From positions 64,001-128,000 of the forward strand of contig CAVSPA010000007.1 in the NCBI GenBank assembly GCA_963729715.1: DNA of 64,000 nt, written 5' to 3'. The position numbers and the translations under genes are program-made. Origin of the DNA: an uncultured delta proteobacterium (GTDB taxonomy: Bacteria; Desulfobacterota; Syntrophia; Syntrophales; UBA2185). Each line of letters begins with the position of its first letter. Position 1 is the stretch's first letter. This document shows, piece after piece, positions 50,923-52,932 of this stretch. Below the pieces are notes generated by a model. The model was not told the origin of the DNA. It worked only from the letters and a program-made list of their open reading frames with translations, and searched no databases.

Positions 50923-52932
50923 ATGAGTAAACGAAAGGCGGCCGACGCCAAGAGCTGGGTGGAGAAGGCCGTAGCTTTCTATAAAGATTCCGGCAAGAGA
51001 ATAGCGCTAGCCGAATATTCGAACCCCGAGGGACAATTTGTGCAGGACGAAAGGTATATCTATGTATTGAGTCTCAAGGGGACCATGCTCGCGCATGGCA
51101 TCAATGAAAAATTTGTGGGTGAGGATTTCAGCGACGTCAAAGACTACGACGGCAGGACCTTCATTAAGACAATCATCAGGAAGGCCAAGGCTGAAGGCAG
51201 CGGCTGGGTGAACTATAAATGGTACCACCCTGTAACCGCGCAGATGGTGCCCAAGACTGTGTATTTTGAGAAGATCGATGATCTGATTATTTGCAGCGGC
51301 GACTATACGGAATTCTCCAAGGGCGTAGCCCTGCTACACGATCCGATGCTGAATAAAGGAACCGCTTTTACAGAGGCGGAGCGCGATGCATTGAAACTGC
51401 GCGGTCTTCTACCGCCGCATGTTCAAACACAGGAAGAACAGGCAGGGCGGGTTATGGACAATTTCCGAAAAAAACCCAACGACCTGGAACGCTATATCCA
51501 GTTGATCGGCCTGCAGGACCGCAATGAGACGCTTTTCTACCACGTCGTGATGAACAACATCGAGCAAATGATGCCCATCATCTATACGCCCACCGTGGGC
51601 CAGGCCTGCCAGGAATACGGCCATCTATTCCGCCGTCCGCGGGGCCTTTACCTATCAATAAAAGACAAAGGCAGAATTGCAGAAATCCTGGAGAACTGGC
51701 CTTACAAGGACATACGCATCATCGTTGTGACCGACGGCGAGCGCATCCTGGGTCTCGGCGACCTCGGTGCATTCGGCATAGGCATACCGGTCGGCAAGCT
51801 TTCTCTCTACACGGCCGCTGCCGGCGTCCATCCGTCGTATGCCCTGCCTGTGCTGCTGGATGTCGGCACGGAAAACAAGACTCTGCTGAATGATCCTCTT
51901 TATACGGGCATATTCCAAAGGCGGGTTCGCGGCAAGGCATACGATAGCTTCTTTGCGGAATTCGTGAAAGCCGTACATAAAGTGTTCCCGAAAGCACTGA
52001 TCCAGCTTGAGGATTTCGCCAACATCAATGCCTTCCGTCTGCTTCACGAATACAAGAACCGCACCTGCATTTTCGATGATGACATACAGGGAACAGCTTC
52101 CGTAGTGCTGGCCGGAGCTTATTCCGCCTTACGTATCACCAAGGGTCAGATGAAGGATCAGAAGTTCCTCTTCCTCGGCGCCGGCGAGGCCGGCATAGGC
52201 ATCGGCGATCTCATCGTTTCCGCGCTGGTCGAAGAAGGCATGACAATTGAGGAAGCCCGCAAGCGATGCTGGTTCATGGATTCAAAGGGTCTGGTGGTAA
52301 AGAGCCGCCTGGGACTCGCCGAGCATAAACTCCCATACGCGCACGACTACCGATCCTGCCCGGATCTGCTCGCGGCCATCCAAACGCTCAAGCCTACCGC
52401 ACTCATCGGCGTATCGGGCTCTTTTAAGGGCTTCACGCAACCAATAGTGGAAACCATGGCAAAGCTCAATGAGCGCCCCATCATCTTCGCACTCTCGAAC
52501 CCGACGTCGAAAGCCGAATGCACGGCGGAAGAGGCTTACACCTGGTCTGCCGGCCGCGCCGTCTTCGCGAGCGGGAGTCCGTTCCCACCAGTCACGCTCG
52601 GCGGTCAGACCTTCAGGCCGGGCCAGGGAAACAACGTCTATATCTTCCCCGGAATGGGTCTGGGCATCATCGCGTGTGAAGCAAAGCATGTAACCGACCA
52701 GATGTTCTTGACGACGGCGAAGTCCCTGGCCGGCCAGGTCCTGGAGAGCGACATCGCGGAAGGCCGCGTCTATCCGGCGTTGAATAGGATCCAAGAGGTC
52801 TCCATCGCCATAGCGGTAGCAGTGGCTGAAGTCGCCTACAAAGAGGGCCTTGCACATAAGAAGAGACCGGCAGATCTCCTGGCCTACATCAAATCGCAGA
52901 TGTACAAGCCGATTTACCAAAGCTACATCTAA
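50923..52932 (+). CDS. Single Cache domain fused to an NAD(P)-dependent malic enzyme
   Basis: aa 1-128 sCache_2-like ([24 protein letters not shown]); the remainder has malic enzyme motifs [43 protein letters not shown] and GQGNN. Confidence 0.92.

Follow-up and report, generated by a model that had tools for sequence, protein, structure and literature searches.

MaeB is a malic enzyme with a phosphotransacetylase-type (PTA) domain that senses acetyl-CoA, as described for the Bdellovibrio protein (accessible text of PMC7902834). Cache domains are reported to be principally extracellular (78% of domains), and in receptors the polypeptide continues from the C-terminal end of the domain to the second transmembrane (TM) helix, which is the sole route for the signal (accessible text of PMC4822843). 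In the sCache_2 domain of the chemoreceptor PscD, the carboxylate of propionate accepts hydrogen bonds from Tyr90, His103, Tyr143 and Lys156, while Trp92 and Trp145 enclose the ligand from both sides and Phe126 lies at its back (accessible text of PMC5062169). Here, we describe a gene in which a Cache domain is joined directly to a malic enzyme in a cytoplasmic protein. It lies within a 64,000-nucleotide stretch of DNA (the window; contig CAVSPA010000007.1 of assembly GCA_963729715.1, positions 64,001 to 128,000 of the forward strand) from an uncultured member of the Syntrophales (UBA2185). The Cache-malic enzyme fusion gene (50923..52932 including the stop codon, + strand) was defined by its open reading frame (ORF) and by Pfam and NCBIfam matches; it starts with ATG and encodes 669 aa. 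A sCache_2-type domain (residues 1-130; 50923..51312, +) is followed by a MaeA/SfcA-type, large-subunit malic enzyme (residues 131-669; 51313..52929, +), and the former probably gates the latter in response to a carboxylate.

The N-terminal half is a complete Cache domain by profile, fold and structural alignment. It matches Pfam sCache_2 (61.8 bits against a cut-off of 25; residues 37-129, model positions 53-142 of 155) and dCache_2 (64.9 bits against 26.5; residues 39-130), and all three families anticipated in a preliminary description made from the sequence alone (sCache_2, malic and Malic_M) exceed their gathering scores. An AlphaFold (AF2) model of residues 1-132, built from a 50-row alignment, has a mean predicted local distance difference test score (pLDDT) of 91.7 and a predicted TM-score (pTM) of 0.87, with helices at residues 3-23, 25-32 and 80-91 and strands at 47-50, 54-58, 93-102, 107-118 and 121-128, the N-terminal helices preceding a PAS-like antiparallel sheet. 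Foldseek ranks 4k08, 5g4y, 4exo and 2qhk highest for this model (E ~5e-10, TM-scores 0.73-0.79). VIA-align returns Z scores of 18.4, 17.6, 17.4 and 17.3 for the same group, at root-mean-square deviations of 2.0-2.4 over 126-127 of ~130 residues (4k08, Z 18.4, 2.0 over 127 residues; 5g4y, Z 17.6, 2.4 over 126), with TlpB ranking lower at ~14 (14.0-14.3) and dCache and PAS domains at 13 or below. Given this coverage, all 130 residues superpose on a sCache_2 ligand-binding domain, and the extent of 1-128 first assigned to the domain is extended by alignment to 1-130. The best solved relatives by sequence (HMMER) are 5g4y (1.2e-11), 4k08 (3.4e-9), 4exo/2qhk (~3e-5) and TlpB 3ub6 (0.0032).

The setting of this domain is cytoplasmic. 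As first described, the Cache domain has neither a signal peptide nor a TM helix, and the whole fusion protein is free of TM-like segments (Kyte-Doolittle hydropathy, 19-aa window, threshold 1.6). The domain begins at residue 1 rather than lying outside the cytoplasm between two TM helices, its usual position. No signal-transduction output domain (methyl-accepting chemotaxis protein (MCP), kinase or cyclase) is present, the only other Pfam domains being malic and Malic_M. A haem or cytochrome assignment, prompted by 'cytochrome c' names from JGI and weak PDB matches (E 0.031 and 0.95), was rejected: there is a single cysteine, C124, and no CxxCH motif.

The C-terminal half is predicted to be a catalytically complete MaeA-type malic enzyme. 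Pfam malic spans residues 198-378 (1.4e-75) and Malic_M residues 388-639 (1.1e-97). The NCBIfam model PRK13529, which represents an oxaloacetate-decarboxylating malate dehydrogenase subfamily, is matched over nearly its full length (residues 132-668, model positions 16-561 of 564) at 742.8 bits against a cut-off of 326, bearing out the initial assignment to the MaeA/SfcA type. Scores fall below the cut-offs of the malolactic enzyme model NF041582 (527.1 against 850 bits) and the MaeB-type model PRK12861 (48.2 against 1178 bits), and no PTA domain occurs among the Pfam matches of the fusion protein. By Foldseek, the enzyme half resembles 3wja, 1gq2 and 6c7n with target-normalized TM-scores of 0.91-0.93 and 53-56% identity (0.91 and 55% for human ME1, 3wja), and is 43% identical to the Escherichia coli structure 6ags. 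The translation contains candidate catalytic, metal-binding and dinucleotide-binding motifs, including ALSNPT, which we take to have the roles known from the human and pigeon enzymes. All that is lacking relative to unfused homologues is a variable N-terminal tail of ~20 aa.

The two halves meet at E130/F131 (51310..51315, +), as defined by aligning 28 stand-alone Cache proteins and 33 unfused malic enzymes with 14 rows of fused sequence, which represent at most 11 distinct proteins. Stand-alone proteins terminate in ...ICSGVY(G/K)E, their final residue aligned to E130, and the unfused enzymes have ~20 variable residues followed by (F/Y/L)P(K/T)GV-LLHDP-LNKGTAF, with homology starting at F131. 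Because stand-alone homologues stop at the equivalent of E130 and malic enzyme homology starts at F131, there is no linker; a linker of ~5 aa had originally been proposed, and its length is instead about zero. As judged by this alignment, a whole stand-alone Cache protein of ~130 aa takes the place of the variable tail of the enzyme, and the zero-length junction is kept in all 14 fused rows.

The fusion cannot be ascribed to mis-assembly, to a frameshift or to a two-gene arrangement. Contigs from two DNA runs belonging to two studies bridge 51310-51315 without differences (X1, 51169-51485; X2, 51249-51399), although one of these runs may be the source of the window itself, and the same architecture recurs as eight uninterrupted genes in seven genomes rather than as two separate genes. 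These results agree with the preliminary description, as does the reading frame itself: 50923-52932 is a single frame of 669 codons preceded by a ribosome-binding site, GAAGGAGA (50910..50917, +). This site is separated from the ATG by 5 nt, and its GGAG core (50913-50916) by 6 nt. In addition, the enzyme half is predicted to have no plausible start of its own. In-frame ATG, GTG or TTG codons between residues 100 and 200 are M108, V109, V113, M142, L157, M178 and L194. Near the junction, the ATG codon M142 has no Shine-Dalgarno sequence and only the TTG codon L157 has one; initiation at L157 would delete a 13-residue segment that the fused proteins conserve and that differs little in the aligned unfused malic enzymes. 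The original statement that no in-frame ATG or GTG with a ribosome-binding site lies at the junction is therefore upheld.

The predicted carboxylate-binding residues of the Cache domain span 51055..51255 (+) and comprise Y45 (51055-51057), H58 (51094-51096), Y98 (51214-51216), W100 (51220-51222) and K111 (51253-51255), at the positions named at the outset. In the HMMER alignment, they correspond to Tyr90, His103, Tyr143, Trp145 and Lys156 of PscD. They are identical to the aligned residues of 5g4y and of 4k08 (Adeh_3718), and identical in all 14 fused rows. Three other pocket positions differ from PscD, namely Trp92 (Y47), Phe126 (I81) and Met129 (I84). With the tetrad intact but the remaining pocket somewhat different, the ligand cannot be named from the pocket. 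NCBIfam models for specific sensors score far below threshold (MctS, monocarboxylate, 38.2 against 700; CtpM, malate, 25.3 against 900). A C4-dicarboxylate ligand was considered by analogy with Atu0646, in which the key residues include R108 and R125 (accessible text of PMC13702588). It was not retained: by simple offset from the histidine, the equivalent positions hold K63 and F80, a weak hint against a dicarboxylate.

The fusion is a conserved gene of a narrow group of bacteria. When residues 1-200 were searched against 5.8 billion protein clusters, 11 of the 120 proteins among the matches listed carried both Cache and malic enzyme Pfam domains and the other 109 were plain malic enzymes. Ten of the 11 fused clusters are 665-669 aa long and one is 618 aa, with 77-98% identity over the aligned part; their source names are simply malic enzyme or malate dehydrogenase, from 'Syntrophales bacterium' metagenome-assembled genomes (MAGs). 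In a set of 151 genomes from the order, all six members of the genus represented by the window gave full-length matches, one of them containing two copies, and so did a single genome from a second genus in the family. When 401 genomes evenly sampled across the phylum were searched, junction-spanning matches were confined to the two that belong to the window's genus. Each of the eight fused genes in these seven genomes has exactly 669 codons. Both halves are under similar purifying selection, with ratios of non-synonymous to synonymous substitution rates (dN/dS) of ~0.1: over the 28 pairs of fused genes, the Cache half gives values of 0.07-0.23 and the enzyme half 0.075-0.136, and dS reaches 1.8.

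Phylogenetic analysis places the eight fused Cache parts in one clade (SH-aLRT 93; quick search, 38 rows) and the eight fused enzyme parts likewise (SH-aLRT 99; 40 rows, taking in five of the ten unfused loci of the order after a motif filter). Both trees share a deep split between the copy of the second genus (genome G149) plus the second copy of genome G107 and the remaining fused genes. The fusion gene is the sole Malic_M gene in the genome of the window, and no Malic_M gene was found in five genomes (90-100% complete) from the four other genera of the family; in this family, the malic enzyme therefore exists only in fused form.

The Cache half has close relatives that stand alone. A search with this half retrieved 280 proteins of 72-231 aa at E <= 0.001, and the best 120 of the 280 are 65-87% identical over their full length. 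These stand-alone relatives of ~130 aa begin directly at the first helix without a signal peptide. Nine further Cache paralogues are encoded in the genome of the window: four signal-less proteins of ~125-163 aa that are 54-71% identical to the fused domain, and five with typical signal peptides that are 36-41% identical; Y45, H58, Y98 and K111 are invariant in all ten copies. In the Cache tree, the branch point of the fused clade falls among the nearest group of stand-alone orthologues in the family, and on these trees the fused domain has a single origin from a stand-alone, signal-less Cache paralogue. The nearest such paralogue (G000 C4:312927-313316; L042:6028-6417, - strand) is 71% identical to the fused domain. 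The gene sits directly downstream of one for a 388-aa double-NDK-like protein in six of six loci from six genomes of the family (including L030-L034), with which it may form a functional pair.

The enzyme part may have come from elsewhere. Its nearest unfused relatives in the alignment, at 70-72% identity, are proteins from metagenomes (one labelled Paceibacterota), and identity to the unfused enzymes of the order itself, which sit in another clade, is only 57-60%. An ancestor with two adjacent genes was rejected: the flanking 1.5 kb at 11 loci for unfused malic enzymes in the order contain no Cache-like sequence better than E 0.01. In the simplest history, a malic enzyme gene would have been acquired and then fused, on a single occasion, with one copy of a stand-alone Cache gene that was already present. 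A phage-type integrase adjoins the second fusion copy of G107 (L051, G107:C106, 15-4025) on its 4.3-kb contig, and the nearest relative of this copy is the one in the other genus, an indication that the fused gene later spread laterally.

We put the probability at roughly 60% that the Cache domain provides the malic enzyme with built-in, carboxylate-gated allostery. A short-chain carboxylate would bind in a pocket of the domain made up of Y45, H58, Y98, W100 and K111, and pocket occupancy would be relayed via the last β-strand of the Cache domain into the N-terminal segment of the enzyme. This signal would change the activity or oligomeric state of the enzyme, thereby placing the malate-to-pyruvate step under built-in allosteric control. 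Solved sCache_2 domains align to model residues 1-130, and the enzyme is thus attached at the very end of the domain that leads to the second TM helix in receptors.

Several observations weigh against this mechanism. A model of the full-length protein (pLDDT 82.9, pTM 0.71) shows no confident interdomain arrangement, the mean pLDDT being 53-62 over residues 131-170; the modelling proposed as a check in the preliminary description therefore succeeded for the Cache half and gave no confident docking of the two domains. Only 2 of 130 positions differ systematically between fused and stand-alone Cache domains: E107Q (Q in 14 of 14 fused rows, E in 27 of 28 stand-alone rows) and V127D (D in 12 of 14, V in 25 of 28). 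With so few fusion-specific positions, there is no sign of a remodelled interface, and since the pocket matches those of stand-alone paralogues and of paralogues fused to major facilitator superfamily (MFS) transporters save for Y/F at position 47, there is no hint of a ligand specific to the malic enzyme. The fused domain, nearly identical to self-standing proteins, could act independently of the enzyme. Furthermore, the fusion is limited to two genera, and gene neighbourhoods vary between lineages. Transcript support covers only the enzyme part of a relative: the metatranscriptome contigs X15 and X16 match 51469-51716 alone, short of the junction, and their 7-10 differences indicate that they derive from a relative.

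An alternative is that the Cache domain is a passenger that does what the stand-alone proteins do, for instance bind a metabolite or regulate a different partner, leaving the enzyme unregulated and merely co-expressed in one chain. The 71% identity to the paralogue at C4:312927, the paucity of fusion-specific positions (just two), a pocket the same as in the paralogues and a model without confident interdomain packing are all as expected of such an independent module, which we nevertheless regard as unlikely. The zero-length junction is kept in all 14 fused rows, length is held at exactly 669 codons in eight genes though dS exceeds 1, and the enzyme of this family is found only in fused form. 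Independent fusions of the same Cache branch to other carboxylate-handling proteins, described below, further suggest that the domain acts on the partner to which it is attached.

Less plausible still is a structural role, in which the Cache domain would act in oligomerization or docking, fixing whether the enzyme is a dimer or a tetramer or bringing in a partner, and would not respond to a small molecule. The N-terminal region of malic enzymes lies near subunit interfaces, and it is the N-terminal tail of the enzyme that the Cache domain replaces; tandem arrays of 2 to 38 copies in relatives likewise indicate that the domain tolerates contexts resembling self-association. However, no fused row has lost W100 or any of the four carboxylate-bonding residues, whose retention a purely structural role would not demand.

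There is also a small chance that the domain gates the enzyme in response to a ligand other than a carboxylate. TlpB, whose sCache_2 domain binds urea and related amides (PDB titles; accessible text of PMC5062169), provides a precedent, and the three pocket positions that differ from PscD (Trp92 to Y47, Phe126 to I81, Met129 to I84) could be read in the same direction. Against this, the carboxylate-bonding tetrad of PscD is complete here and carboxylate binders are the best matches, both by sequence (1.2e-11 for 5g4y and 3.4e-9 for 4k08 versus 0.0032 for TlpB) and by structure (Z 17.3-18.4 versus 14.0-14.3). Finally, that the fusion is an artefact of mis-assembly or sequencing error joining two genes, or that the enzyme is translated from an internal start, is scarcely credible in view of eight uninterrupted genes in seven genomes, at least 11 fused protein clusters, a junction bridged without differences by two DNA runs and the lack of ATG or GTG codons with a Shine-Dalgarno sequence at the junction.

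Carboxylate gating of the malic enzyme can be set against the wider family, in which Cache domains occur on several other cytoplasmic proteins. Relatives at E <= 0.001 number 3849 among 1.84 billion representatives. A simple heuristic classification of the best 150 of these 3849 assigned at least two domain copies to 103, of which 93 have a hydrophobic N-terminus; single-domain proteins comprised 17 with a signal-like N-terminus, 13 without and 10 that were ambiguous, and there were six single-domain fusions. The family thus appears to be mostly secreted, in line with the extracellular majority reported in the accessible text of PMC4822843, with the signal-less branch as the exception. Tandem arrays reach 16 matched stretches in P0270 (2099 aa) and 38 in P0275 (4876 aa), and occur in ~100 other representatives, many with 3-4; from their sequences, these proteins look like secreted multi-Cache polymers.

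This lineage has further predicted Cache-type domains on metabolic proteins of the cytoplasm, namely on an MFS transporter of the sister genus and on a citrate-synthase-like enzyme. The former (MFS-Cache) is a 610-aa protein resembling metabolite/H+ symporters (TIGR00883, 209 bits, below cut-off) in which the Cache domain follows the last TM segment. In G149, its gene lies two genes downstream of the Cache-malic enzyme gene, within an operon (L049, G149:C174, 2650-11220) that encodes a SBP_bac_3 histidine kinase, a sigma-54 response regulator, the Cache-malic enzyme, a Peripla_BP_6 protein and MFS-Cache. A sigma-54-like motif (TGGCAT-N5-TTGCT) is present ~105 nt 5' of the malic enzyme ATG in this genome. 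MFS-Cache represents an independent fusion, since the tree assigns its Cache domain to another lineage of paralogues (SH-aLRT 96). The citrate-synthase-like protein is encoded in the genome of the window (G000 C4; L060:1327-3213, +) and is a 629-aa enzyme of the HMGL family with a C-terminal Cache-type domain (HMGL-like, residues 59-333; MCP-like_PDC_1, residues 496-599, 51.1 bits against a cut-off of 27).

The signal-less branch has other cytoplasmic partners as well. In the soluble histidine kinases P0310, P0284 and P0287, a Cache domain precedes a partial HATPase_c match, with cNMP-binding and HisKA domains additionally upstream in P0310, and the MCP P0416 ends, on the cytoplasmic side, in a Cache domain. 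Nine further clusters (P0260-P0268; 233-261 aa) combine a Cache domain with a C-terminal tail of ~100 aa that matches 2Fe-2S_thioredx below threshold (19-20 bits against 24.8). P0322 and P0353 each carry two Cache domains on a lactate permease, and these domains are probably periplasmic, given the N-terminal signal or TM segments of both proteins. Three further frames were set aside as having no bearing on the fusion: a long frame with a Cache match in L053, which is an ordinary multi-sensor kinase; a 506-aa ORF with a Cache match in L054 that overlaps a gene on the opposite strand; and a 301-aa ORF with one Cache match in L055, whose sigma-54 activator and UbiA neighbours are the same as at a tandem Cache pair in the genome of the window. 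At G000 C10:62851-63710 (L045:5935-6914, +), two tandem secreted single-Cache proteins with signal peptides are encoded directly upstream of a 4HB MCP, CheW, CheR, CheD and an HDOD protein, and these may be periplasmic ligand-binding partners of the chemoreceptor. The accessible portion of a review on solute-binding proteins (PMC8050422) contains nothing on stand-alone Cache proteins.

The pocket residues are the same in the signal-less paralogues, the MFS-fused domain and the malic enzyme-fused domains, save for Y/F at position 47 and K/R at position 63, the latter included only as the offset equivalent of the dicarboxylate-sensor arginine. This agreement suggests that the three groups share one ligand class. 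On a broader and more tentative reading, which we consider possible but would not favour, the signal-less branch would be a general cytoplasmic metabolite-sensing module that reads one common short-chain carboxylate. It would control enzymes and transporters in cis, through the malic enzyme, MFS symporter, ferredoxin-like and soluble kinase fusions, and in trans through the stand-alone proteins, for example those with a double-NDK-like neighbour. ACT, CBS and PII proteins fill a comparable metabolite-sensing role elsewhere. If this reading is correct, the role of Cache domains extends from extracellular signalling input to intracellular allostery, and the malic enzyme fusion would serve as a Rosetta stone for the orphan stand-alone proteins of syntrophic bacteria.

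The surroundings of the gene are in part compatible with a role in organic acid metabolism. A thioredoxin gene lies upstream (50214..50687, +) and is syntenic in six of six loci of the genus. Downstream and convergent is a gene for a homologue of the LarA family of nickel-pincer 2-hydroxyacid racemases (52968..54260, -; Pfam Lar_N and LarA_C), the last gene of an operon for an ATP-binding cassette (ABC) transporter (54287..58919, -) that comprises two ATPases, two BPD_transp_2 permeases and a Peripla_BP_6 binding protein, as identified by Pfam. The LarA homologue reaches the cut-off of none of the NCBIfam equivalog models (330.6 against 460 for lactate racemase and 294.7 against 500 for malate racemase, with both malate racemase families missed), and its best PDB match is 9eid, titled 'broad-substrate spectrum lactate racemase A'. 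The hydroxy-acid cluster initially described beside the fusion is conserved in part, with the LarA homologue adjoining the fusion in five of six loci within the genus but in neither copy outside that group. In genome G007, neighbouring genes encode proteins resembling glycerate 2-kinase and tartronate semialdehyde reductase and a member of the lactate permease family. An organic and hydroxy-acid theme thus appears to recur around the fusion, without any single conserved pathway. Elsewhere in the window, a 153-aa ORF (48695-49156, +) has a single EamA domain and about half the usual length of EamA transporters; it may be a fragment or a half-size form.

A perfect hairpin with a 14-bp stem and a 4-nt loop occupies the 5' leader of the fusion gene (50868..50899, +; sequence and minimum free energy fold), ending 23 nt 5' of the ATG; candidate roles are a leader structure or an operator. 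The hairpin persists, slightly altered, in the leaders of the orthologues in G131, G029 and G120 and is absent from those of G107a, G007, G149 and G107b. One of its arms, searched as a 15-mer on the + strand only with at most one mismatch, occurs at two places in the genome, the other being C7:292940. A promoter scan of 50500-53200 found no sigma-70-like site, and a terminator scan of the same interval returned one terminator-like site, on the - strand inside the fusion gene, fewer than in shuffled sequences.

The hosts of the fusion are uncultured Syntrophales of peat, soil and permafrost, and the fate of malate, pyruvate and short-chain acids in these organisms bears on syntrophic carbon flow. 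The fusion also provides a testable handle on hundreds of orphan Cache proteins of ~130 aa. If gating by the Cache domain is real, it would offer a natural and compact coupling of sensor and enzyme that could be copied in engineering. No description of a Cache-malic enzyme fusion, or of a cytoplasmic Cache domain on an enzyme, was found by searches of the full-text literature, outside subscription journals and domain-architecture databases, in agreement with the earlier view of the architecture as undescribed; nor did a full-text search find papers on Cache domains in Syntrophus.

Among related proteins, the stand-alone signal-less Cache proteins of Syntrophales and related MAGs, annotated as 'cache domain-containing protein', share the same pocket and high identity (65-87% among the best 120 of 280), but they are separate genes, and the nearest group follows a double-NDK-like protein rather than a malic enzyme. 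The citrate-synthase-like protein likewise combines a central-carbon enzyme with a cytoplasmic Cache-type domain in the same genome, although its domain is PDC_1/dCache_1-like and C-terminal, whereas that of the malic enzyme is sCache_2 and N-terminal. Human ME2 binds its effectors at sites within the enzyme body, in contrast to the Cache-malic enzyme with its separate, added sensor domain. The two enzymes share the same fold at ~50% identity, and the title of PDB entry 1gz3 refers to regulation of ME2 by ATP and fumarate. Chemoreceptor domains, represented by PscD (5G4Y/5G4Z), Adeh_3718 (4K08) and an MCP of Vibrio parahaemolyticus (4EXO/2QHK), have the same fold over the whole 130 residues (Z 17.3-18.4), and PscD, as described in the accessible text of PMC5062169, has the same Tyr/His/Tyr/Lys set and one of the two sandwiching tryptophans in common with the fused domain. 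They differ in being periplasmic, between two TM helices and feeding a signalling domain, whereas the fused domain has no TM helix or signal peptide and is attached straight to an enzyme; its N-terminal helix is also shorter (no match to Pfam model positions 1-52). In prokaryotes, Cache domains are described as the chief sensors outside the cell, acting on signalling proteins via a membrane helix; here, a complete one is found in the cytoplasm on an enzyme of central carbon metabolism, and it is this location of the sensor that makes the malic enzyme unusual. The closest known system, and the precedent for a sensor domain on a malic enzyme, is the MaeB hybrid (accessible text of PMC7902834), which similarly has a non-catalytic ligand-sensing domain appended on the same polypeptide, there informing the active site of a molecule that reflects metabolic state. 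MaeB carries a C-terminal PTA domain on a small-subunit-type enzyme, whereas the Cache domain is N-terminal on a large MaeA/eukaryote-like enzyme, and regulation has been demonstrated for MaeB and is proposed for the Cache-malic enzyme. If the latter is indeed gated by its Cache domain, it would represent a second, independent solution to the problem that MaeB solves with PTA.

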